DNA of 64,000 bases, taken from positions 70,853 through 134,852 of the IMG/VR virus record IMGVR_UViG_3300032294_002710. One strand, 5' to 3'. Numbering within the stretch: the stretch's first letter is position 1; each line of letters opens with the position of its first letter. The notes under the pieces were generated by a model. The model did not search any database and was not told the origin of the DNA. It saw only the letters and a program-made list of their open reading frames with translations. The translations under genes and the position numbers were made by a program. The stretch is from a virus. Of this stretch, positions 21,142-63,615 are shown piece by piece.

Positions 21142-22590
21142 ATGGCAAAGTTTAACACAACAGTACCAAAACAAAAAACACTAACTACTAATTTAGCTGG
21201 TGGACAGGCTTATCAACAATCAAGTGAGTTGGAATTGGTTTCAATCCTTTTAACTTCATTTGTTAGTGACCAATTTTATCGTCAATCTGGTGATACTTTA
21301 GAAAGAGTTAAAACTCTTTTAGATAAAGTTAATCCTAAATTTGCGGCTAAGACTGCAATTTTTGCTCGTGATAAGTTTGGAATGAGAAGTATTACACACG
21401 CTTTAGCTGGTGAGCTAACCTCAAAACTTGGTGGTCATGAGTGGTCAAAGGACTTCTATGATAAAGTTGTTGTTCGTGTTGATGATATGACTGAAATTAT
21501 GTCTTACTATCTTGAGAATAAAACAGATAAGTCTAAACCAAAGTTTCCAAATGCTTTGAAGAAAGGATTTGCATCAGCTTTTGATAAATTTGATAACTAT
21601 CAAATTGCTAAGTATAAGAATGAAAATAAAGAAGTAAAACTTGTTGATATTGTGAATTTGGTTCACCCAGTTCCTACTACTTCAAATAAGGATGCTCTTT
21701 CAAAACTTGTTGCTGGTAATCTGAAGTCTACAGATACTTGGGAATCTAAACTTTCTAAGGCTGGTCAAGAAGCATCTAATGATGAAGAATTGACACAATT
21801 GAAGTCTGATGCTTGGGGAGAACTTCTTACTACAAGAAAAATTGGATACTTTGCACTTCTTAGAAACCTAAGAAATATTATTAATCAAGCTCCACAATTT
21901 GTTGGACTTGCTTGTGACCTATTGGTTGATGAAAAAATGATTAAGTCAAGTCGTGTTCTTCCATTCAGATTTGCAACTGCTTATGAAGAGATTTCTAAAT
22001 TAGGATCTTCTTCTGATGTTAGAAAGGTTATGACTGCATTACACCAGGCTTTGGACATTTCATCTGTAAATATTCCTAAGTTCGATGGTGAGACATTAGT
22101 AGTACTTGATGTATCAGGATCTATGAGTGGTAAACCATCTGAGATAGCTTCTCTTTTTGGAGCTATGTTGGCTAAGGCTAATAACTGTGATGTTATGACA
22201 TTTGCTACAAGTGCTAGTTATAAGTCTTATAACCCAATGGACTCAATACTTACTATTAGAAATGGATTCCGCTTCTCTGGTGGTGGTACGAACTTTAAGG
22301 ATATATTCTTAAAGGCTAATAAGAAATATGACCGTGTTATTATCTTATCAGATATGCAAGGTTGGATGGGTTATACAACACCAGCTTCTGAATTTAATCT
22401 TTATAAGAAGAAATTCAACTGTAATCCTTATGTTTACTCTTGGGATTTGGCTGGACTTGGTACAATGCAACTTCCAGAAAGTAATGTATTTGCATTAGCT
22501 GGATTTAGTGATAAGGTATTTGATATTATGAAGTGGCTTGAAACAGATAGAAATACACTTTATAAAATGATAAATGATATAGAAATCTAA
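21142..22590 (+). CDS. Ro60 / TROVE-domain RNA-binding protein (TROVE + vWA)
   Basis: NLAGGQAY, GMRS, ALLRNLRNI, SRVLPFRF, vWA DVSGSM, GGTNF, SDMQ. Confidence 0.93.
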   Translation: MAKFNTTVPKQKTLTTNLAGGQAYQQSSELELVSILLTSFVSDQFYRQSGDTLERVKTLLDKVNPKFAAKTAIFARDKFGMRSITHALAGELTSKLGGHEWSKDFYDKVVVRVDDMTEIMSYYLENKTDKSKPKFPNALKKGFASAFDKFDNYQIAKYKNENKEVKLVDIVNLVHPVPTTSNKDALSKLVAGNLKSTDTWESKLSKAGQEASNDEELTQLKSDAWGELLTTRKIGYFALLRNLRNIINQAPQFVGLACDLLVDEKMIKSSRVLPFRFATAYEEISKLGSSSDVRKVMTALHQALDISSVNIPKFDGETLVVLDVSGSMSGKPSEIASLFGAMLAKANNCDVMTFATSASYKSYNPMDSILTIRNGFRFSGGGTNFKDIFLKANKKYDRVIILSDMQGWMGYTTPASEFNLYKKKFNCNPYVYSWDLAGLGTMQLPESNVFALAGFSDKVFDIMKWLETDRNTLYKMINDIEI

Positions 22591-51065: not shown

Positions 51066-51097
51066 AAAAAAACCCAGTCAATTTGACTGGGTTTTTT
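51066..51097. terminator. Bidirectional intrinsic terminator
   Basis: A-run cccagtcaa-t-ttgactggg T-run between convergent genes. Confidence 0.8.
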
Positions 51098-52260: not shown

Positions 52261-52291
52261 TTTGGAGATTTAAAAAATCTTCGTATATTTG
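52261..52291 (+). promoter_or_regulatory. Bacteroidota-type promoter of the Tyr/Glu tRNA operon
   Basis: TTTG-N19-TATATTTG. Confidence 0.8.
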
Positions 52292-52325
52292 TAAAACAAA
52301 ACAGAACAATTTAAAAATAGAAATC

Positions 52326-52406
52326 ATGGCAACTTTTGAAACATATTATTATGAAGCGTATGAGGAACACTCAGCGACTGGAGATACTATGTCTGTGAAA
52401 AGTTGA
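52326..52406 (+). CDS. Leader peptide 1 (MATFETYYYEAYEEHSATGDTMSVKS), Tyr/Glu attenuator
   Basis: 4 Tyr + 4 Glu in codons 5-14; lies between promoter and terminator. Confidence 0.85.
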   Translation: MATFETYYYEAYEEHSATGDTMSVKS

Positions 52407-52436
52407 TATGTAAGATATTAACTAAAAACACAAGTT

Positions 52437-52470
52437 AACCCAGTCAAAATCAAAATTGACTGGGTTTTTT
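52437..52470 (+). terminator. Attenuator terminator 1
   Basis: aacccagtcaa/ttgactgggtt + T run; 5' arm also complementary to leader gactgg (52376-81). Confidence 0.85.
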
Positions 52471-52484
52471 GTTTTAAAATATAT

Positions 52485-52578
52485 TGGGGTATAACGGTAG
52501 GGCATAGTAAGCGCCCGACAGAGTATATAAAACGCCGTATGGACTACCTGTGAGGAGGTTCGATTCCTTCTACTCCAA
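52485..52578 (+). tRNA. Non-canonical tRNA-Tyr(GTA)-like RNA, D-arm rewired
   Basis: Acceptor tggggta/tactcca, T-arm; degenerate anticodon arm with GTA; acggt pairs with gccgt. Confidence 0.5.
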
Positions 52579-52586
52579 CTAAATAT

Positions 52587-52658
52587 GGTCCCATCATCTA
52601 ATGGTTAGGATACAAGACTTTCAATCTTGAAATGCGGGTTCGATCCCCGTTGGGACTA
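52587..52658 (+). tRNA. tRNA-Glu(TTC)
   Basis: Cloverleaf; caaga-ctTTCaa-tcttg. Confidence 0.92.
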
Positions 52659-52667
52659 CAAAAATAT

Positions 52668-52751
52668 GGGAGAGTAACCGGTAACTGGTAGCCGCGCGGA
52701 CTGTAAATCCGCTCTCATTCGAGACTGGGGGTTCGAGTCCCTCCTCTCCCA
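52668..52751 (+). tRNA. tRNA-Tyr(GTA)
   Basis: gcgga-ctGTAaa-tccgc; long variable arm. Confidence 0.92.
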
Positions 52752-52756
52752 CAAAT

Positions 52757-52830
52757 GCTCTTGTCGTCTAACGGTAGGACTCCTGTTTTTCAAACAGATG
52801 TAGATGCGGGTTCGATTCCCGTCAAGAGTA
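52757..52830 (+). tRNA. tRNA-Glu(TTC)
   Basis: ctgt-ttTTCaa-acag. Confidence 0.85.
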
Positions 52831-52838
52831 CTAAATAT

Positions 52839-52932
52839 GGGATGTGTTGTCACAAGGGGTCTGTAAAACCCCTCTCCGTTAACAAAATTGTGACTGGTTT
52901 GGAGTTTAGAGGTTCGATTCCTTCATATCCCA
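52839..52932 (+). tRNA. Non-canonical tRNA-Tyr(GTA), D-arm rewired
   Basis: ggggt-ctGTAaa-acccc; no D hairpin; gtcacaa pairs with ttgtgac in the variable arm. Confidence 0.75.
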
Positions 52933-52940
52933 CTAAATAT

Positions 52941-53015
52941 GGTCCGTTCGTCTAGCCAGGTCTAGGACATCTCCCTTTCACGGAGAAGACACGGGTTCGA
53001 ATCCCGTACGGACTA
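52941..53015 (+). tRNA. tRNA-Glu(TTC)
   Basis: tctcc-ctTTCac-ggaga. Confidence 0.92.
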
Positions 53016-53021
53016 CAATAT

Positions 53022-53095
53022 GGCCCTGTCGTCTACGATGGCTAGGACATCACCCTCTCAAGGTGAAGAAGGCGGATCGACACCGCTCAGGGCTA
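53022..53095 (+). tRNA. tRNA-Glu(CTC)
   Basis: tcacc-ctCTCaa-ggtga; T-loop ATCGACA variant. Confidence 0.88.
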
Positions 53096-53098
53096 CAA

Positions 53099-53240
53099 AA
53101 ATATCAGGAGTACCTGTCGTAGAAAGTTAATTACTTTCCCTGATATTTATACAACTCAATGATGTAAGTGATTTTGGCAGTACCGACAGGAGGGTGAATT
53201 TAATTAGATTCTTTGGGGTTCGATTCCCACCATTGAGTTA
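53099..53240 (+). ncRNA. Two-module structured RNA (hairpin + tRNA-like unit)
   Basis: aaatatcagg/cctgatattt; aactcaatg/cattgagtt with GTTCGATT T-loop; cross-pairing cctgtcg/cgacagg. Confidence 0.5.
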
Positions 53241-53246
53241 TTTTAT

Positions 53247-53332
53247 TGGAAGGTGGCCGAGTGGTTAATGGCGGCAGACTGTAAATCTGCTCTCTTCGGA
53301 GTACGGGGGTTCGAATCCCTCCCTTCCAACCA
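53247..53332 (+). tRNA. tRNA-Tyr(GTA) with encoded CCA
   Basis: gcaga-ctGTAaa-tctgc; variable arm. Confidence 0.93.
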
Positions 53333-53371: not shown

Positions 53372-53379
53372 TATATTTG
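53372..53379 (+). promoter_or_regulatory. Bacteroidota-type -7 element
   Basis: TATATTTG. Confidence 0.5.
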
Positions 53380-53439
53380 TAAAGTAAATCAAATGTGGCT
53401 AAGTCCTATATGGCAAAAAGTTCATATTTTGATTTTTAT

Positions 53440-53526
53440 GGGAAAGTACCGAAGTGGTCAAACGGGCCTCAGTCGTAACTGGGGTGGCCTTAGGGTCTTC
53501 AGCGGTTCGAATCCGACTCTTTCCCA
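53440..53526 (+). tRNA. Class II tRNA with irregular anticodon loop (probably Tyr-derived)
   Basis: cctcag-tcgtaa-ctgggg gives a 6- or 8-nt loop; long variable arm; A73. Confidence 0.6.
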
Positions 53527-53593
53527 CTAAAATATTTATTAGGAGAGAAAAACTTTTTAATATATATTTATATAACTTAAAATAAAGATAAAA

Positions 53594-53671
53594 ATGAAAG
53601 CAGTTAATAACATATCAATCATAGGGAACGGCGCGATAGCGGGCGGTGGGCCCATTATGCTGATTGGATAA
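53594..53671 (+). CDS. Leader peptide 2 (MKAVNNISIIGNGAIAGGGPIMLIG), Ile/Gly/Ala attenuator
   Basis: 6 Ile (3 ATA), 6 Gly, 3 Ala in 25 codons; precedes terminator. Confidence 0.85.
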   Translation: MKAVNNISIIGNGAIAGGGPIMLIG

Positions 53672-53697
53672 GTTTTAACTCTTTCATTAAAGATACG

Positions 53698-53728
53698 AAC
53701 CCAGTCAGTAAATTGACTGGGTTTTTTT
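53698..53728 (+). terminator. Attenuator terminator 2
   Basis: aacccagtcag/ttgactgggtt + T run; 5' arm complementary to leader ctgattgg (53660-67). Confidence 0.85.
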
Positions 53729-53733
53729 ATTAT

Positions 53734-53814
53734 CGGCAGGTACCGTTGGATGCTTATATCATCTATACACGTAGCGGGAAGTTGAAAACGTGGGTTCGAA
53801 TCCCACCCTGCCGA
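53734..53814 (+). tRNA. Non-canonical tRNA-Ile(TAT), D-arm rewired
   Basis: cggcagg/cctgccg; ggatg-ctTATat-catct; ccgtt pairs with agcgg. Confidence 0.75.
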
Positions 53815-53816
53815 CA

Positions 53817-53890
53817 AACTCAAACTTGTGTTAACTCCTTGAGAGTGAAGTTGTGTACACAACAGGTTTATTCCCATAAGTCCCTGAGTT
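53817..53890 (+). ncRNA. Structured multibranch element in tRNA operon
   Basis: aactca/tgagtt, acttgtg/cataagt, actc/gagt, gttgt/acaac. Confidence 0.4.
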
Positions 53891-53893
53891 ATT

Positions 53894-53967
53894 GCAGAAG
53901 TGGTGTTTAATGGTTAGCATGTGAGACTTCCACTCTCAAGGTGCCGGTTCGAATCCGGTCTTCTGCT
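53894..53967 (+). tRNA. tRNA-Gly(TCC)
   Basis: tgaga-ctTCCac-tctca; U73. Confidence 0.92.
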
Positions 53968-53974
53968 CAGATAT

Positions 53975-54048
53975 GTCGATGACGCATAAATGGTGGTGCA
54001 CCTGATTGCCAATCAGGAATAGAGCCGGTTCGATCCCGGTTATCGACT
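53975..54048 (+). tRNA. tRNA-Gly(GCC)
   Basis: cctga-ttGCCaa-tcagg; U73. Confidence 0.88.
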
Positions 54049-54063
54049 CAGACTTTTCAATAT

Positions 54064-54101
54064 GCCGGAGGACTCCCTGTTAGTCCCAGGGTCCGGCTCC
54101 A
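54064..54101 (+). ncRNA. Acceptor-stem minihelix ending in UCCA
   Basis: gccgga/tccggc followed by t-cca. Confidence 0.35.
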
Positions 54102-54175
54102 GGGGCAGCATGTACCAAGGCTGGCGAAGATTTCTGGCAGAAATCTTGTGATGGATTCAATTTCCATCTGCTCCA
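54102..54175 (+). tRNA. tRNA-Ala(GGC), atypical D-arm, 7-bp anticodon stem
   Basis: G3:U70; aagattt-ctGGCag-aaatctt. Confidence 0.75.
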
Positions 54176-54184
54176 CAAAAATTA

Positions 54185-54259
54185 GGGGATGCATGTACTG
54201 AGGCTAAGCGAAAAGCACTTGCAATGCTTTTGATGTGATTTCGACTATCACCATCTCCA
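54185..54259 (+). tRNA. tRNA-Ala(TGC), atypical D-arm, 7-bp anticodon stem
   Basis: G3:U70; aaaagca-ctTGCaa-tgctttt. Confidence 0.78.
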
Positions 54260-54378
54260 CGAGTTCGATAGAGAAACTCTCCACTTTATGAATGATTTTG
54301 AAAATGTTTTACAAAGGAAGAAGAGTATTAGAAATCAAAAATATCTTGAAAGTCTTAAATAATTTCATATATTTGTAA

Positions 54379-54654
54379 AAATTAAATCTTATTGCCGCAG
54401 AAACAAATAGTAAATTACCTGGTCAATACTGGGAACAATTAAATAAACACGGATTACCTAACTATCTTTACTTAGGGGATGAATTAGTAATCGTTGACAG
54501 TATTGAGAAAAGAAAGAGAAAAAATGGCGCGAAAGTCGATCAGATATATTATATTCTGAGTGATGGTAGAGTAAAGCACGCATCTTTTTTCAAAAAGATT
54601 GATATAAAAGTAATAAAAAGAGATTATCTATTAAATAGTATCTTAAATGATTAA
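54379..54654 (+). CDS. Open frame without ATG/GTG/TTG start (non-canonical start or damaged gene)
   Basis: 91 sense codons after TATATTTG promoter; ends IKRDYLLNSILND overlapping tilS start. Confidence 0.5.
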   Translation, partial: KLNLIAAETNSKLPGQYWEQLNKHGLPNYLYLGDELVIVDSIEKRKRKNGAKVDQIYYILSDGRVKHASFFKKIDIKVIKRDYLLNSILND

Positions 54655-55234
54655 AGTCTTAGGTAAAATTCCTAAAGGTGAATTTGGACTTGCCTGTTCA
54701 GGTGGGGTTGATTCGATGGCTATTGCTAACTTTTTAGTTAATGGTGGTTACAATCCACATATTCTATACTTTAATCATAATACTGAACACGGAGATCTTG
54801 CCGAGAAGTTTGTAACTGAATATTGTCAGAGACATAATCTAAAACTCACAATTGGTAGAACTGATCTTAAACCTCAATCAAATAAAGAAAAGATTTGGAG
54901 TGATTTGAGATATGAGTTTTTCTCAAAATTTGATTTTCCTGTTATTACTTGCCATCATTTAGATGATTGTGTTGAGACTTACATTTTCTCTTGTCTTAGA
55001 GGATTTCAATCGGTTATTCCTTATTCTAAGGGTAATGTAATTCGCCCATTCCTATTGAATGAAAAATCACAATTTTATAAGTGGTGTGAGAATAAAGGAG
55101 TGCCTTTTATTGAGGATGAATCAAATTCATGTGTAGATTATTCAAGAAATCGTATTCGTCATAATATTGTTCCAGAGTCACTGTTGGTAAATCCTGGATT
55201 GAAAACTGTTGTTAAGAAGATGATTACTCTGTAA
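54647..55234 (+). CDS. tilS: tRNA(Ile)-lysidine synthetase, catalytic domain only
   Basis: PP-loop SGGVDSM, RY, HHLDDCVET, IRPFL, DESN..YSRNRIRH. Confidence 0.9.
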   Translation: MIKVLGKIPKGEFGLACSGGVDSMAIANFLVNGGYNPHILYFNHNTEHGDLAEKFVTEYCQRHNLKLTIGRTDLKPQSNKEKIWSDLRYEFFSKFDFPVITCHHLDDCVETYIFSCLRGFQSVIPYSKGNVIRPFLLNEKSQFYKWCENKGVPFIEDESNSCVDYSRNRIRHNIVPESLLVNPGLKTVVKKMITL

Positions 55235-58400: not shown

Positions 58401-59225
58401 ATGAAAAATGAAAAAGATAGCCTCGGCAACCGCATGAAGGCTTACGAAAACCAAACCTGTGGAATCAAAATGCTTCCACTTATCCCTGTAATCGCTCGTC
58501 TTGATGGTAAGGGATTCTCTAAATTTACTAAAGGTCTTAAACGACCTTATGATGAAAGGCTTTCAAATCTTATGATTGAAACCACAAAGTATCTTGTAAA
58601 AGAAACTAATGCTAATTGTGGTTACACTCAAAGTGACGAAATCACTCTTATGTGGTACTCTGATAGTCATGAGTCAAAAATCTACTTTGATGGTAGACTT
58701 TTCAAAATGATTTCAGATCTTGCTTCAATGGGTTCTGTATTCTTCAATTCTAAACTTGCTGAATACATTCCTGAGAAGAAAGATAAAATGCCAAGATTCG
58801 ATTGTCGAGTTTGGAATGTTCCGAATGTAGATGAAGCCGTGAATGTTTTTTACTGGAGAGAAAAAGATGCAACCAAGAACTCTATTACAATGGCTGCTTC
58901 TGAATACTACTCACACAATTTCCTTATGGGTAAGAATGGTTCTGAAAAACAAGAATTACTTTTCCAAAAAGGTGTAAACTGGAATGATTATCCATCTTTC
59001 TTTAAAAGAGGTAGTTACATTCAAAGAAAGCGAGTTGTAAGTAAGTTTAGCAGTGAAGAACTTGAGAGACTTCCACTTAAACACAAGGCAAGACTTAATC
59101 CAGATCTTGAAATCGAAAGATGGGTTATTGATCGTGTAGAACTTCCACCACTCTCAACTATTGAGAATAAAGTTGGTGTGATTGTATATGGTGAAGATGT
59201 GAAAATTAAAAGTCCAGTTTTTTAA
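58401..59225 (+). CDS. Thg1-like tRNA(His) guanylyltransferase / 3'-5' polymerase
   Basis: RMKAYE, RLDGKGFSKFT, YTQSDEI, FDCR, WREKDATKNS. Confidence 0.92.
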   Translation: MKNEKDSLGNRMKAYENQTCGIKMLPLIPVIARLDGKGFSKFTKGLKRPYDERLSNLMIETTKYLVKETNANCGYTQSDEITLMWYSDSHESKIYFDGRLFKMISDLASMGSVFFNSKLAEYIPEKKDKMPRFDCRVWNVPNVDEAVNVFYWREKDATKNSITMAASEYYSHNFLMGKNGSEKQELLFQKGVNWNDYPSFFKRGSYIQRKRVVSKFSSEELERLPLKHKARLNPDLEIERWVIDRVELPPLSTIENKVGVIVYGEDVKIKSPVF

Positions 59226-60029: not shown

Positions 60030-60452
60030 ATGATTAAAGAAGGTAGTAAAGTTAAAGCCCATTATACTGGTCGTTTAACGAATAATGATGTTTTTGACAC
60101 ATCGTTGAGAGATGGTCGTGAGCCATTAGAGTTTGTAGTTGGTGAAGGATCACTTATTCCAGGATTTGAAAATGGTATAATGGGTTTGTCTAAAGGAGAC
60201 AAGAAAACTGTAAATATACCACCATCTGAAGCTTATGGGGAATACAGACAAGATTTGTGCTTAACAGTTCCAAAGACTAATGTGCCACCTGGTATTCAAG
60301 TTGGACAAACACTTCAAGCTAATACAGATGGTCAAATGGTTCCATTTATTGTTAGAGAAGTGATGGAGAATGAAGTTATTGTTGATGCGAATCATCCATT
60401 AGCTGGTCAAGAATTGATTTTTGATATTGAAATTGTAGATATTGAAAATTAA
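60030..60452 (+). CDS. FKBP-type peptidyl-prolyl isomerase (SlyD-like)
   Basis: HYTG, FDTS, LIPGFE, AYG, DANHPLAG. Confidence 0.93.
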   Translation: MIKEGSKVKAHYTGRLTNNDVFDTSLRDGREPLEFVVGEGSLIPGFENGIMGLSKGDKKTVNIPPSEAYGEYRQDLCLTVPKTNVPPGIQVGQTLQANTDGQMVPFIVREVMENEVIVDANHPLAGQELIFDIEIVDIEN

Positions 60453-60483
60453 TTTGGAAGTTAAAAAAACTTCCTTATATTTG
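60453..60483 (+). promoter_or_regulatory. Bacteroidota-type sigma-A promoter
   Basis: TTTG-N19-TATATTTG. Confidence 0.75.
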
Positions 60484-60489
60484 TAAAAT

Positions 60490-60567
60490 AAAACAGAGAA
60501 CTCCGGTATGGTCTCAATCATTACTCAGAACCGGGCTTCGGAGAGTTACAAGTTGAGACTCTGTTTT
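60490..60567 (+). ncRNA. Candidate pseudoknotted small RNA
   Basis: aaaacagag/ctctgtttt, aactc/gagtt, ccggt/accgg, crossing gtctcaa/ttgagac. Confidence 0.5.
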
Positions 60568-60587
60568 TAAAAAAAAATTAAAAAATA

Positions 60588-60618
60588 TTTGAAAGATTAA
60601 AACTTTTTCATATATTTG
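60588..60618 (+). promoter_or_regulatory. Bacteroidota-type promoter of the third tRNA operon
   Basis: TTTG-N19-TATATTTG. Confidence 0.8.
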
Positions 60619-60663
60619 TATAAAATAACACAAAGAGACAAAAACTTTTTAATATATAAAAAA

Positions 60664-60777
60664 ATGAGAACAATGAATCTAAATATCACAAATTTGAACC
60701 TCACAATGGTGGTGAATAATACATTATGTATTAGAACCGCTGGTTCGGGTTGTGCAAAATTTGGATTTATCTCGTGA
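60664..60777 (+). CDS. Leader peptide 3 (MRTMNLNITNLNLTMVVNNTLCIRTAGSGCAKFGFIS), multi-amino-acid attenuator
   Basis: First 25 codons use only M,R,T,N,L,I,V,C, the set of downstream tRNAs. Confidence 0.88.
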   Translation: MRTMNLNITNLNLTMVVNNTLCIRTAGSGCAKFGFIS

Positions 60778-60804
60778 TGAATTGATATAATCCAAAAAAG
60801 ATAC

Positions 60805-60840
60805 AAACCCGAACCGTAAAAAGTTCGGGTTTTTTGTTTT
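60805..60840 (+). terminator. Attenuator terminator 3
   Basis: aaacccgaac/gttcgggttt + T run; 5' arm has a perfect 10-nt complement ggttcgggtt (60742-51) in the leader. Confidence 0.88.
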
Positions 60841-60844
60841 ATAC

Positions 60845-60919
60845 GCTCCCGTAGCCCAATTGGCAGAGGCAACAGACTTAAACCCTGTACAGGTATCGGT
60901 TCGAATCCGATGGGGAGTA
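60845..60919 (+). tRNA. tRNA with anticodon TAA (Leu), short variable region
   Basis: acaga-ctTAAac-cctgt. Confidence 0.75.
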
Positions 60920-60967
60920 CAAAAAGAGAAGGTGACATATCGCACTCTGAAAATGCGAAATGGTAAT

Positions 60968-61051
60968 GCCCAGGTGGTGGAATTGGTAGACACCCCGGTC
61001 TAAGAAGCCGGTGTCCGTAAGGACGTGAGAGTTCGAGTCTCTCCTTGGGTA
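60968..61051 (+). tRNA. tRNA-Leu(AAG)
   Basis: ccggt-ctAAGaa-gccgg; variable arm. Confidence 0.88.
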
Positions 61052-61119
61052 CGAAAGTTTTTAACCCCTTCCAGATATTTCCGCTGTTGTCTGGAAGGGG
61101 TGGAGACAAGGATTAAAAT

Positions 61120-61202
61120 ACCTTTGTGGCGAAATTGGTAGCACGCGCTGGTCTTAGAAACCAGTTCCGAAAGGAGTGTCGGTTCGAATCCGACTAAAGG
61201 TA
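61120..61202 (+). tRNA. tRNA-Leu(TAG)
   Basis: ctggt-ctTAGaa-accag. Confidence 0.92.
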
Positions 61203-61208
61203 CAAAAT

Positions 61209-61281
61209 GGTCTCTTCGTCCAACTGGACAGGACATCGGTCTTCTAAACCGAGGATATGGGTTCGAATCCCGTAGGGACTA
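61209..61281 (+). tRNA. tRNA-Arg(TCT)
   Basis: tcggt-ctTCTaa-accga. Confidence 0.9.
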
Positions 61282-61287
61282 CTAAAA

Positions 61288-61372
61288 GGATGGGTTGCTT
61301 TAGAGGCCGAAAAGTCTGGACTGTTAATCCAGTGTCGCAAGACCACCGTGGGTTCGAATCCCACCCTGTCCT
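61288..61372 (+). tRNA. tRNA-Asn(GTT) with long variable arm
   Basis: ctgga-ctGTTaa-tccag; gtc-gcaa-gac arm. Confidence 0.8.
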
Positions 61373-61385
61373 CAAAATTATATAC

Positions 61386-61472
61386 TGGCAGTTGGCCGAG
61401 AGGACGATGGCAGTGGACTGTTAATCCACCGTAGCGAAAGCTCCAACATAGGTTCGAATCCTATACTGTCAG
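61386..61472 (+). tRNA. tRNA-Asn(GTT) with long variable arm
   Basis: gtgga-ctGTTaa-tccac; agc-gaaa-gct arm; G73. Confidence 0.85.
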
Positions 61473-61483
61473 CTAACAAAATA

Positions 61484-61565
61484 CGGCAAGTACCAGCCCA
61501 TCCTGATAAGATGGAGAACTGTAGTTGGTATGTTGAAAACGTGGGTTCGAGTCCCACCTTGCCGA
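61484..61565 (+). tRNA. Non-canonical tRNA-Ile(GAT), D-arm rewired
   Basis: cggcaag/cttgccg; ccatc-ctGATaa-gatgg; taccagc pairs with gttggta. Confidence 0.78.
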
Positions 61566-61575
61566 CAAAGGATTA

Positions 61576-61649
61576 GCCTCCTTAGCTTTAATTGGTAGAG
61601 CACCTGACTTGTAATCAGGGGGTTGTCGGTTCGAGTCCGGCAGGAGGCT
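61576..61649 (+). tRNA. tRNA-Thr(TGT)
   Basis: cctga-ctTGTaa-tcagg. Confidence 0.93.
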
Positions 61650-61656
61650 CATATAT

Positions 61657-61739
61657 AGGAATAGTAATTGAAAGAGATACTTCGATCAAACTTCTAATTT
61701 GGCAACGAAACCAAAAACTCTTTTAAGATTTTCTTTCCT
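61657..61739 (+). ncRNA. Y-RNA-like RNA copy C
   Basis: agga/tcct, tagtaat, ttgaaagag/ctcttttaa, ATACTTCG motif. Confidence 0.55.
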
Positions 61740-61743
61740 TTAT

Positions 61744-61826
61744 GCACAGGTGGTAGAGTGGCGAATGCAACGGCCTGCAAAGCCGTAGTCGAAAGACCAT
61801 CGGGGGTTCGAGTCCCTCCCTGTGCT
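61744..61826 (+). tRNA. tRNA-Cys(GCA) with long variable arm
   Basis: acggc-ctGCAaa-gccgt; gtc-gaaa-gac arm; U73. Confidence 0.87.
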
Positions 61827-61832
61827 CAACTT

Positions 61833-61903
61833 GCCCCGGTGGCGTAATGGGAGCGTACTTGTTTTACATGCAAGTGGCAGTGGTTCGAATCCACTTCGGG
61901 GTA
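61833..61903 (+). tRNA. tRNA-Val(TAC)
   Basis: cttgt-ttTACat-gcaag. Confidence 0.87.
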
Positions 61904-61910
61904 CTAAAAT

Positions 61911-61984
61911 TGGAATATAGCTCAGTTGGTTAGAGCAATTCGCTGATACCGAATAGGTCGCTGGTTCGAGTCCAGCTATTCCAA
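61911..61984 (+). tRNA. tRNA-Ile(GAT)
   Basis: attcg-ctGATac-cgaat. Confidence 0.92.
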
Positions 61985-61989
61985 CAAAA

Positions 61990-62103
61990 ATGTATGGTGA
62001 TTAAAAGTGTTACTTCGTGAAATGGTTAACACAATTGTTTTAAACACAATTATTTACTGGTTCGAATCCAGTAGTATAAACCACTTTTAAACCTTTCCTA
62101 CAT
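61990..62103 (+). ncRNA. Y-RNA-like RNA copy D with tRNA-like domain (YrlA-type architecture)
   Basis: atgta/tacat, ttaaaagtg/cacttttaa, TTACTTCG, then D-arm, anticodon-like arm and T-arm actgg-TTCGAAT-ccagt. Confidence 0.7.
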
Positions 62104-62108
62104 TTAAT

Positions 62109-62193
62109 GCCGATGTGGCTCAGTGGCGACAGCACCGGTTTTGTAAACCGGAGACGATTTAGTCCAGCGGGGGTTCGAGTCCCTCCATCGGCT
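62109..62193 (+). tRNA. tRNA-Thr(TGT) with long variable arm
   Basis: ccggt-ttTGTaa-accgg. Confidence 0.85.
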
Positions 62194-62195
62194 CA

Positions 62196-62303
62196 ATGAA
62201 TGTGTGAATGCACGATAAACTAAAACGGCACCAGCGGAGACTGGAGTGGATATTGGAAACACATAACCACCACAAATGTAGGAGAATACCCTACCACATT
62301 CAT
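62196..62303 (+). ncRNA. tRNA-like structured RNA of unknown type
   Basis: atgaatgtg/cacattcat acceptor-like stem; gtagg-agaatac-cctac T-like arm; ccag/ctgg and gtgg/ccac hairpins. Confidence 0.5.
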
Positions 62304-62308
62304 CAAAT

Positions 62309-62382
62309 AGTCTTGTAGCTCAGTTGGTTAGAGCGTTTGGTCGACATCCAAAAGGTCATCGGTTCGAATCCGGTCAGGACTA
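62309..62382 (+). tRNA. tRNA-Val(GAC)
   Basis: tttgg-tcGACat-ccaaa (C33). Confidence 0.88.
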
Positions 62383-62387
62383 CAAAA

Positions 62388-62459
62388 GCCAATGTCGTAT
62401 AACGGCAATTACACACCGTTGGTATCGGTGAGACACCAGTTCAACTCTGGTCTTTGGCT
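62388..62459 (+). tRNA. tRNA-Thr(GGT)
   Basis: caccg-ttGGTat-cggtg. Confidence 0.85.
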
Positions 62460-62464
62460 CAAAT

Positions 62465-62554
62465 GCCTCAGTGGCGAAACTGGTTGAAACGCCTTAGTCT
62501 TAGGAACTAAGACCCAAGTGGTAAACGTTGTCGGTTCGAATCCGACCTGAGGTA
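62465..62554 (+). tRNA. tRNA-Leu(TAG)
   Basis: ttagt-ctTAGga-actaa; variable arm. Confidence 0.9.
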
Positions 62555-62571
62555 CAAAAAATATAATAAAA

Positions 62572-62775
62572 ATGGCAAAGTGGTATAACATAGTTAAAAG
62601 ATATAAAGGTGAATCTAAGAGTCACAAGAGATTTTATTCTTCCAGAGATATGATGGAGTTAAAAAGAATGATATCAGTTGCAAACTCGGAGGCTAAAAGA
62701 GGTTTGAGAAAACCTTATAAAGGAATCTCACCTTGTGGATGTGGAATGGAAGGATGTTTCATTTTGTATTCATAA
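62572..62775 (+). CDS. Small basic protein inside tRNA operon
   Basis: 67 aa between tRNAs; CGCGMEGC. Confidence 0.55.
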   Translation: MAKWYNIVKRYKGESKSHKRFYSSRDMMELKRMISVANSEAKRGLRKPYKGISPCGCGMEGCFILYS

Positions 62776-62780
62776 AAAAT

Positions 62781-62865
62781 GCCGAAATGGCGGAACTGGT
62801 AGACGCGCCGGCCTCAAAAGCTGGTGTCCTTAAAGGACGTGTGGGTTCGAGTCCCACTTTCGGTA
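62781..62865 (+). tRNA. tRNA-Leu(CAA)
   Basis: ccggc-ctCAAaa-gctgg; variable arm. Confidence 0.92.
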
Positions 62866-62870
62866 CAAAT

Positions 62871-62942
62871 GGCGATATGGTGTAACGGCAAGCTCACATG
62901 GCTCATATCCTTGAGGACCAGGTTCGATTCCTGGTATCGCTA
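62871..62942 (+). tRNA. tRNA(CAT), elongator Met or Ile2
   Basis: catgg-ctCATat-ccttg. Confidence 0.8.
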
Positions 62943-63005
62943 CCTTGAATTTTTTTAAAAATAAACCAAGATGGAGAAATTGTGATATAAAAATGAAATT
63001 TAAAA

Positions 63006-63275: not shown

Positions 63276-63615
63276 ACTTCTTATAGACTTCAGATTTTTG
63301 AAACCAAGTGTTGTTTTCGGATAATAGTTCAAAACTATTATGTGCTTGTTCACACATTTTTTTAAATTGTGAAATATCATAAGCGGAGAGTTTAAACCAT
63401 TCTCCGCTTATTTTTTTGTCTTGAAAAAATCTATGTAATTTTGATTCTATTTGAGTTCCCCATTTAGATTTATATTGATCAATTAATTCTAATTCTGAGG
63501 CATTTCCAGTCTTCATTTCTTTAATTCTTTGAAGTGGATTTCTTTTTGTATATCCAATTTTGTAACAAGTATCGCCTTCAATTGTAGATGAAATTAAATA
63601 TACACATATTTCCAT
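63268..63615 (-). CDS. GIY-YIG / T5orf172-family nuclease
   Basis: VYLI..YKIGYTK..RIKEMKTGN, E..LH, GEWF. Confidence 0.85.
   Translation of the reverse strand: MEICVYLISSTIEGDTCYKIGYTKRNPLQRIKEMKTGNASELELIDQYKSKWGTQIESKLHRFFQDKKISGEWFKLSAYDISQFKKMCEQAHNSFELLSENNTWFQKSEVYKKFN

Follow-up and report, generated by a model that had tools for sequence, protein, structure and literature searches.

A tRNA array in a phage genome is preceded by a probable leader-peptide transcription attenuator

The IMG/VR virus record IMGVR_UViG_3300032294_002710 is a single contig of 134,852 bp with 29.9% G+C, and the stretch analysed here (the window, 64,000 nucleotides, to which all coordinates refer) is its last 64 kb. 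A phage-type DNA polymerase, a helicase and a ribonucleotide reductase are encoded in the window and genome, and all 28 of the genome's tRNAs found by ARAGORN fall inside the window. Towards its end, on the plus strand, a promoter, a short open reading frame (ORF), an intrinsic terminator and a large tRNA array follow one another, in an order that points to leader-peptide attenuation of the tRNA genes. The promoter (60588-60618) consists of TTTG, 19 nt and TATATTTG, a −33/−7 layout of Bacteroidota type. This motif has 14 matches in the window against 4.76 expected, a count that 0 of 100 shuffles reach, and the leader ORF starts 45 nt on. The ORF (60664-60777) has 37 codons and a TGA stop codon (60775-60777). 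Its product reads MRTMNLNITNLNLTMVVNNTLCIRTAGSGCAKFGFIS in its entirety, with MRTMNLNITNLNLTMVVNNTLCIRT followed by AGSGCAKFGFIS and the stop. The first 25 codons (60664-60738), referred to here as the sensor stretch, encode M, R, T, N, L, I, V and C only.

The array that the leader is proposed to control (60845-62944, plus strand) contains 17 tRNAs found by ARAGORN and an Ile(GAU)-like gene that lacks a D arm (61484-61572), which brings the number of tRNA-like genes detected by a T-loop motif scan to 18. The Leu anticodons assigned by ARAGORN are, in order, taa, aag, tag, taa, tag and caa, and the remaining anticodons are Arg tct, Asn gtt (twice), Thr tgt (twice) and ggt, Cys gca, Val tac and gac, Ile gat, and Met cat. 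An earlier note made from the DNA alone had claimed that the first 25 codons are limited to eight amino acids and that 17 downstream tRNAs cover exactly those eight. Both claims are borne out, and the eighteenth gene, with its GAU loop, leaves the amino-acid set unchanged. Within the array there is neither a Bacteroidota-type promoter motif nor a detectable plus-strand terminator, and the next plus-strand intrinsic terminator (63379-63411) is the likely end of the transcription unit, so that the array fits a single transcription unit.

The eight-residue set accounts for 0.408 of the residues in 127 long ORFs of the genome, which puts the chance of the match (p^24) at 4.4e-10. Over its six frames the genome has 534 ATG ORFs with 25 codons or more; only the focal ORF has 25 of 25 N-terminal residues in the set, and the runner-up, a hydrophobic spurious frame, has 19 of 25. 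No other ORF of the genome is near the focal one in this respect. Counted over the 25 codons ahead of the antiterminator strand described below, 24 are in the set (binomial 6.9e-09), and under strict wobble 23 of the 25 sensor codons are readable by the array (f_codon 0.92). Lys (9.3%), Ser (7.8%), Asp (7.0%) and Phe (5.5%) are common in the proteome and none of them occurs in the sensor stretch, and because these common residues are missing, an AT-rich bias is ruled out as the cause. With 2903 ATG ORFs in the six frames of this genome, a spurious small ORF could in principle lie between a promoter and a terminator by chance or artefact. The probability of 4.4e-10 and the uniqueness among 534 ORFs, together with a frame that is preserved at 90 loci and the 0 units found in three unrelated phages (both described below), make this explanation hardly credible.

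The leader region folds far better than its shuffled versions (z −6.3, 0 of 200 shuffles), and the strands of a switch can be assigned within it. Strand 2, the 5′ strand of the antiterminator (ggttcgggttgtgc, 60742-60755), spans codons 27-31, and strands 3 and 4 (aaacccgaac and gttcgggttt) together with a T run form the intrinsic terminator (60805-60838, with the hairpin at 60805-60832). The pairing that the earlier note had described is confirmed: ggttcgggtt (60742-60751) is the perfect complement of aacccgaacc (60806-60815), and tttggatt (60760-60767) pairs with aatccaaa (60789-60796) as the inner helix (60760-60796) of this long antiterminator hairpin; the helix encloses the stop codon and also appears in the fold of the truncated transcript. 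The duplex between strand 2 and the terminator 5′ arm has an energy of −15.0 kcal/mol. A candidate strand 1 (aatttgaacc, 60691-60700) pairs with strand 2 in the full-length minimum-energy fold. A small hairpin within the sensor (60717-60733, codons 18-24) recurs in the same place in the folds of 6 of 6 leaders and is a possible polymerase pause site.

For folding, the ribosome was modelled as a 30-nt mask. In the full-length focal RNA, the terminator has a probability of 0.92 without a ribosome, of 0.00-0.09 with the ribosomal A site at codons 4-18, and of about 0.9 at codons 24-38. Since the full-leader equilibrium folds of two relatives (L010 and L019) favour the terminator nearly everywhere, truncated transcripts were adopted. 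When the transcript is cut before strand 4, the terminator 5′ arm is sequestered with a probability of 0.93, but this is only 0.01-0.45 with a ribosome on codons 24-34, and at codon 23 the arm is already partly freed (0.69). The pattern in the cut transcript is common to 6 of 6 leaders folded. From these probabilities, a stall in the sensor is predicted to keep the antiterminator in place, and run-through to codons 24-34 to break it as the terminator forms.

A cultured relative was sought in a phage collection, in which the leader is shared only by two uncultured giant-phage records, LR745206.1 (L010, 634,780 bp) and LR756502.1 (L011, 642,428 bp), each with a homologous leader, terminator and array; the other similarities were to tRNAs. 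A search pattern was then built from the conserved block and required part of the sensor (GTGGTGAATA.TAC.TTATG). It matched 7 viral contigs and 97 metagenome stretches, and of the 107 matches analysed, 90 are family leaders homologous to the focal ORF, 15 arose by chance and 2 are homologues that are truncated or shortened. A scan of 185,579 representative prokaryote genomes yielded 10 pattern matches, all 10 of them chance occurrences inside unrelated frames with no array adjacent, and no clue to a host or prophage.

Between codon 2 and the block fixed by the pattern, the leaders have 34 peptide variants in which 839 of 868 residues belong to the eight-residue set, against 354 expected. All 29 residues outside the set are Lys, 27 of them at codon 2. 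Across the 35 distinct DNA versions of this segment, 442 of 457 codons of frame 0 belong to the set and none is a stop; of the other two frames, one has 152 of 422 codons in the set and 136 stops, the other 99 of 422 and 15 stops. The 66 distinct complete leaders that make up the alignment end in TAA (45), TGA (19) or TAG (2), which fits the standard code. What is conserved is the alphabet and not the sequence, as predicted by a codon sensor and not by a functional peptide.

This conservation bears on the alternative that the ORF encodes a functional micropeptide with a terminator of its own, that the tRNAs are made through incidental read-through or from other starts, and that the match is a by-product of a hydrophobic/polar peptide in AT-rich DNA. 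In favour of it, the C-terminal half of the leader is moderately conserved (AGSGCAKFGFIS here, SEGFVISKRFVS in relatives), and AT-rich genomes do favour codons for N, I, L, T and M. The same bias would, however, equally favour K, F, Y, S and D, all of which are absent, and the N-terminal sequence varies freely and keeps its alphabet alone. The conserved C-terminal codons, for their part, fall on the RNA strand found to covary with the terminator, and the array has no internal promoter motif from which the tRNAs could be made independently. A micropeptide would also leave unexplained the poly-Gln, Tyr/Glu and Gly/Ala leaders that stand before tRNAs for the same amino acids (see below), and we consider it very unlikely.

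Covariation supports both alternative helices. In the alignment of 66 leaders, 93.0% of antiterminator cells are paired, compared with 25-57% in slid controls, and 3 of the 9 pairs show double changes (36 cells), a level attained by 0 of 500 shuffles. For the terminator, all cells (100%) in 65 distinct rows are paired, and 3 of its 9 pairs have compensatory changes. Strand 2 mirrors the terminator stem of each lineage (gttcgggtt, ctgagggtt, gaatctgggtt and others). In the class with the large mixed sensor, called the big class here, the complementarity of strand 2 reaches p<=0.01 in 51 of 51 units (200 shuffles each). Of 48 big-class leaders, 25 are preceded by the full promoter motif and 39 by the −7 box, compared with 0.6% and 7.5% of random 110-nt windows. 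What the computation shows directly is the architecture, the match between codons and array, its conservation, the covariation in the two helices, and where strand 2 lies with respect to the sensor.

Two further units with the same layout lie in the window on the plus strand, each with its own amino-acid set. The Glu/Tyr unit (52261-53332) has a promoter (52261-52291), a leader (MATFETYYYEAYEEHSATGDTMSVKS, 52326-52406), a terminator (52437-52466), and Glu and Tyr tRNAs (52587-53332) accompanied by extra tRNA-like genes; 8 of its 15 sensor codons are E or Y (p=1.6e-04). The Ile/Gly/Ala (I/G/A) unit (53594-54260) has a leader (MKAVNNISIIGNGAIAGGGPIMLIG, 53594-53671) in which 8 of 20 codons are G or A (p=1.7e-04). 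Its terminator (53697-53724) is followed by an array that opens with an Ile(UAU)-like gene (53734-53815) and continues with Gly tcc, Gly gcc and Ala tgc.

To find such units elsewhere, a script was used that demands only a terminator, a short ORF ahead of it and a tRNA behind it, on 50-kb stretches of the giant phages. LR745206.1 and LR756502.1 have five units each, and every leader has its own array: E/Y leaders precede Glu/Tyr tRNAs, I/G/A leaders Ile(tat)/Gly/Ala tRNAs, big-class leaders their own arrays, P/D/Q leaders Pro/Asp tRNAs, and Q leaders Gln tRNAs. The Gln-only leaders, MTTTQQIQQQQINQTD or MTTSFQQQQQQQINRTD (QQQQQQQ), precede three or four Gln tRNAs. Metagenome loci add more units of each class, and one metagenome contig has a Ser/Arg (S/R) leader (MKTITNISSSSSRSNR...) before Arg(acg) and Ser(tga). 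The total is 81 distinct units, of which 51 are big, 12 I/G/A, 7 P/D/Q, 6 E/Y, 4 Q and 1 S/R. In 4 of 4 genomes with at least three units, the true pairing of leaders with arrays tops all permutations (1/6, 1/6, 1/120 and 1/120). A promoter motif of their own is rare among the I/G/A leaders (1 of 11) and the Q leaders (0 of 4), which sit directly behind the preceding array and so would act as serial gates in a longer transcript. In the two giant phages and the metagenome loci, all leader classes have in common an N-terminal motif, M-K/T/N-T/N-I/L/M-x-N-I/M (MKTINVNI, MKNLNNIS, MNTITNIA, MKTMNLNM), and sequence comparison suggests that the classes are paralogues that diverged in the sensor segment.

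As a negative control, and not as a survey, the same script was applied to the tRNA-rich regions of Erwinia phage Cronus, Salmonella phage VSe12 and Aeromonas phage 4_4572, in which it found 0 units. These three phages have 21, 22 and 18 tRNAs, and 11 small ORFs in them match the next tRNAs at only 0.03-0.21. From these controls and the prokaryote scan, the element in its present form appears to be confined to this phage group.

The earlier note had gone further and placed the match at isoacceptor level, with the four Leu codons CTA, TTG, CTC and TTA corresponding to four Leu anticodons. These codons are indeed present, but matching at this level is not established for the focal leader. Under genome codon usage, four Leu codons fall in four anticodon classes with p = 0.060, and the permutation of codons against the anticodon set that the note had suggested has low power, as most synonymous codons are readable anyway. 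Given the leader's amino acids, only CTC, CGN and ATA are unreadable by the focal array, and the proposed pairing of CTC with AAG needs A34 as inosine or a relaxed wobble. The four-way Leu pattern is not kept in relatives, which have other mixes of Leu codons. For Ile, the codons differ with the array across the family. The I/G/A leaders, whose arrays open with Ile(tat), use ATA 32, ATC 6 and ATT 6 times (32/44 ATA), whereas the big leaders, whose arrays have Ile(gat), use ATT 84, ATC 7 and ATA 4 times (4/95 ATA), a partition with a Fisher value of 2.6e-17 that is not an exact probability, as the rows are related. The I/G/A leaders also keep GGC-GCG-GGG, codons that make up 3-6% of their families in this genome. 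Isoacceptor tuning is therefore a partly supported claim: codon usage argues for it for Ile ATA versus ATT/ATC across the family and only weakly for the focal leader.

The class structure and the Ile partition also bear on whether a real switch might sense amino-acid supply or general translation speed and not particular tRNA species, with the arrays as a general stress response like the Anabaena trn operon. A leader-peptide attenuator is blind to the difference between low tRNA and low charging, and the default of the truncated RNA to read-through would suit a switch that is turned on whenever translation falters. A stress-induced tRNA array is documented in Anabaena (PMC8421152; PMC10272220). 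A general sensor, however, needs neither six leader classes that each track their own array nor an Ile ATA versus ATT/ATC partition by array. Extra tRNA does not relieve amino-acid starvation either, so that the feedback would be pointless, and this explanation is unlikely.

The reading that fits best is that the focal element is a ribosome-mediated leader-peptide transcription attenuator of a phage tRNA operon, which we consider very likely from the sequence comparisons and the fold models. The proposal of the earlier note, a leader-peptide attenuator with ggttcgggtt as the antiterminator strand, is strongly supported by the architecture, the covariation, the composition and the five further classes. 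In the proposed mechanism, transcription would start at the host-type promoter (60588-60618) and a ribosome would then translate the 37-codon leader. When aminoacyl-tRNAs for the first 25 codons are plentiful, the ribosome would reach codons 24-34 and cover or unwind strand 2, the terminator hairpin (60805-60832) would form, and RNA polymerase would halt ahead of the tRNA genes. When a cognate charged tRNA is scarce, the ribosome would slow at any of about 24 sensor codons and strand 2 would stay free, to pair with the terminator 5′ arm in the long antiterminator hairpin; the polymerase could then enter the 18 tRNA genes. As the array would supply exactly the tRNAs under test, the product would feed back on its own synthesis, and the phage probably makes the array tRNAs only when ribosomes are short of them. 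The three units in the window would each report on their own amino-acid set, with up to five units per record in relatives and a sixth class in one metagenome contig. We infer the translation of the ORF, the raised read-through upon stalling, the kinetic order of folding and the cause of tRNA depletion in the infected cell.

Several observations weigh against this mechanism or narrow it. Strand 1 is clear only in the focal lineage and is not evident in relatives. The full RNA of relatives at equilibrium keeps the terminator for most ribosome positions: in L010 the terminator has a probability of at least 0.94, except for 0.52-0.53 at codons 10-11, and in L019 it has 0.79-0.97 throughout. Because the terminator wins these equilibrium folds, the switch would depend on the order of co-transcriptional folding. 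The truncated RNA without a ribosome is already predicted to form the antiterminator (strand 2 with strand 3 is preferred in 6 leaders), and the models suggest that untranslated transcripts may read through, unlike those of trp. In the smaller classes, strand 2 beats its shuffles in only 5 of 12 I/G/A, 1 of 6 E/Y, 1 of 7 P/D/Q, 1 of 4 Q and 0 of 1 S/R units. When the small classes are cut before strand 4 and folded with RNAalifold on their MAFFT alignments, which are too poor for the folds to weigh either way, I/G/A and E/Y give no consensus structure (energy 0.0), P/D/Q has an 8-bp antiterminator helix and Q has a local hairpin only.

The match and its conservation have limits of the same kind. 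The match of the sensor to the array in relatives is 0.78-0.92, and the identity of eight amino acids with eight is exact in the focal phage and not everywhere. A conserved Cys codon has no ARAGORN tRNA-Cys in L010, L011, L003, L004, L005, L006 and L009, and the Lys at codon 2 has no tRNA-Lys partner. The part of the sensor required by the search pattern also forms a hairpin, and its conservation is uninformative on codon sensing. The covariation amounts to about two to three independent stem switches in related rows, and with related sequences the shuffle counts and Fisher values overstate independence. Several array tRNAs are atypical in body, and the amino acid that they carry is therefore only predicted from the anticodon. 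Four RNA or RNA-guessed public runs are represented by contigs, which cover parts of the array and 60400-60630 and not 60661-60834; some RNA-run pieces on the tRNA array show 0 differences.

Two Asn(gtt) genes (61288-61373 and 61386-61473), Cys(gca) (61744-61827) and Thr(tgt) (62109-62194) are 84-88 nt long, and these lengths suggest long variable arms, which were read by eye for one of them. Bacterial Leu tRNAs usually have a long variable arm. Two Leu(taa) genes in the array (60845-60920 and 62008-62083) are just 76 nt long, and bodies and anticodons look swapped among the array tRNAs. The arrays of relatives likewise include Asn, Ile, Arg and Thr tRNAs of excess length, and Leu tRNAs that are short. 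Four tRNA-like genes in the window (61484-61572, 53734-53815, 52838-52932 and 52487-52580) were missed by ARAGORN at default settings. In the two Ile-like genes and in 52838-52932, the acceptor, anticodon and T arms fold, a D hairpin is missing, and the strand on the D side is paired to the variable region; the anticodon loops are Ile GAU (61484-61572), Ile UAU (53734-53815) and Tyr GUA (52838-52932). Folding of 52487-52580 gave no clear cloverleaf-like structure. A further stretch (53375-53527) has its own promoter-like box (tatatatttg) and then a tRNA-like gene with a long variable arm, for which ARAGORN at a lowered threshold gives a four-base anticodon (cgta) and folding gives a 4-nt loop on an 8-bp stem. 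Relatives likewise have tRNAs with abnormal anticodon loops, listed as ???(gtag), ???(acat) and ???(tt).

Other features surround the arrays. Between them lie genes for a PP-loop family protein (54647-55234; PF01171, 2.5e-31), of the family of tRNA(Ile)-lysidine synthetase, and for a Thg1-like tRNA-His guanylyltransferase or 5′-end repair enzyme (58401-59225; PF04446, 9e-30), which form a tRNA island with the arrays. Further away, a 482-aa protein (21142-22590) matches the PHROG family phrog_850, annotated as 'RNA-binding protein'. A short way ahead of the focal promoter, another promoter motif (60453-60483) precedes about 80 nt that have complementary-looking ends (cagag...ctctg) and finish in a T run; this stretch (60453-60570) reads like a small RNA gene, and it has no match to an Rfam family. 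A terminator stem, aacccagtca ... tgactgggtt, is used three times in the window (51067-51097, 52437-52466 and 53697-53724), once behind an ordinary ORF of 150 codons and once in each of the two other attenuators, Glu/Tyr and Ile/Gly/Ala; the focal stem is a different one. The repeated stem looks like a reused terminator module. The focal array encloses a 67-codon ORF with a C-x-C motif (62572-62775) that has no Pfam match. In LR756502.1, an ORF of 67 codons (L011 24347-24550; L002 4285-4488) separates the terminator from the first tRNA. Small protein ORFs within the controlled units would be co-regulated with the tRNAs. Besides the probable source run (share 0.97), DNA of the phage was found, at a share of 0.30-0.43, in 13 further public DNA runs, whose labels are freshwater, riverine, aquatic, cold-spring, wastewater or plain metagenome.

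A broader hypothesis, which we put forward tentatively and regard as possible but doubtful, is that the attenuators together form a modular surveillance of the host tRNA pool. The leaders would detect the loss of tRNAs during infection and switch on the matching block of replacements, many with odd bodies that would escape attack, as an inducible counter-defence. Under this hypothesis, tRNAs would be lost to host anticodon nucleases, to other defences that target tRNA, or to host shut-off. The odd bodies would be those without a D arm, those that combine a long variable arm with an Asn, Cys or Thr anticodon, and the short Leu tRNAs. The Thg1-like gene and the PP-loop, TilS-like gene beside the arrays would belong to the same circuit, and the switch itself would be a textbook bacterial one, partly tuned to single isoacceptors (Ile AUA versus AUU/AUC).

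Leader-peptide attenuation is a textbook mechanism in operons for making or loading amino acids and, to our knowledge, not in tRNA genes themselves. We found no published leader-peptide attenuation of tRNA genes in full-text searches of main articles, few of them from subscription journals. In the main text of a giant-phage survey, attenuation, leader, terminator and tRNA array are all unmentioned (PMC7162821). If the attenuator is real, it would explain how phages with large tRNA complements time their expression, and why tRNA genes are sorted into blocks by amino acid that are kept from this 135-kb freshwater phage to phages of 640 kb. It would also explain a steady tRNA level through direct product feedback. 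Whether phage tRNAs serve codon-usage matching or the replacement of lost host tRNAs becomes a question for reporter tests, and the leaders would reveal what codons count as limiting for the phage itself. The parts, which are modular and take up only about 250 nt, could be natural sensors of individual tRNA availability in Bacteroidota.

At gathering thresholds, Rfam has no cis-regulatory family in this DNA, only tRNAs. Thr_leader appears with 21.7 bits against a gathering threshold of 55 (E 0.52), and at E<=1 MicC and plastid UTR families also appear; we regard all of these as sub-threshold chance matches. T-box riboswitches bind uncharged tRNA directly, without translation, and control synthetase, biosynthesis or transporter genes. 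They resemble the element described here in that terminator read-through is coupled to the state of a specific tRNA, whereas the sensor here is an ORF, and the window has no Rfam T-box match at any threshold tried.

The trn operon of Anabaena sp. PCC 7120 is a long tRNA array that is silent until translation is impaired (PMC8421152; PMC10272220). Its control is reported to act on the promoter, where the repressor TrcR binds direct repeats, and the paper has 0 mentions of attenuation, leader peptide or terminator (PMC8421152). The two systems are alike in that an accessory tRNA array is normally off and comes on when translation falters, and in having tRNA repair genes nearby (rtcB in Anabaena, the Thg1-like and PP-loop genes here). 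The trn operon differs in being cellular, on a megaplasmid, with one array and no known amino-acid-specific sensing. The terminator and leader architecture of the phage units argues for a mechanism other than repression of the TrcR type.

Closer parallels are found among bacterial attenuators. The pheST attenuator of E. coli, with its pheM leader, controls phenylalanyl-tRNA synthetase. As in pheST, leader-peptide attenuation would act here on a component of the translation apparatus that sets the level of charged tRNA. Unlike pheST, in which the target is a synthetase for one amino acid and a cellular gene, whole blocks of tRNAs would be controlled here, in a virus.

Multivalent attenuators are known from the enterobacterial operons thr (Thr and Ile) and ilvGMEDA (Leu, Val and Ile), and other operons of this kind are trp, his, leu and pheA. 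Like the thr and ilvGMEDA attenuators, the phage element has a short leader rich in regulatory codons and an intrinsic terminator, and more than one amino acid would be sensed. It also has an alternative hairpin with a strand at the 3′ end of the ORF, and stalling upstream of this strand is predicted to favour read-through. In these respects the locus has what a classical attenuator has, namely an enriched 5′ ORF, an intervening terminator and a mutually exclusive antiterminator that lies past the regulatory codons. It differs from the enterobacterial attenuators in that most relatives have no convincing strand 1, in that untranslated RNA is predicted to read through, and in its occurrence in phages with Bacteroidota-type promoters. 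Eight amino acids over about 24 codons would be sensed, compared with one to three. The genes downstream are 18 tRNA genes, outside the classical scope of biosynthesis, transport and synthetase genes, so that tRNA genes and not biosynthetic enzymes would be controlled, and the molecule sensed would be the product itself.

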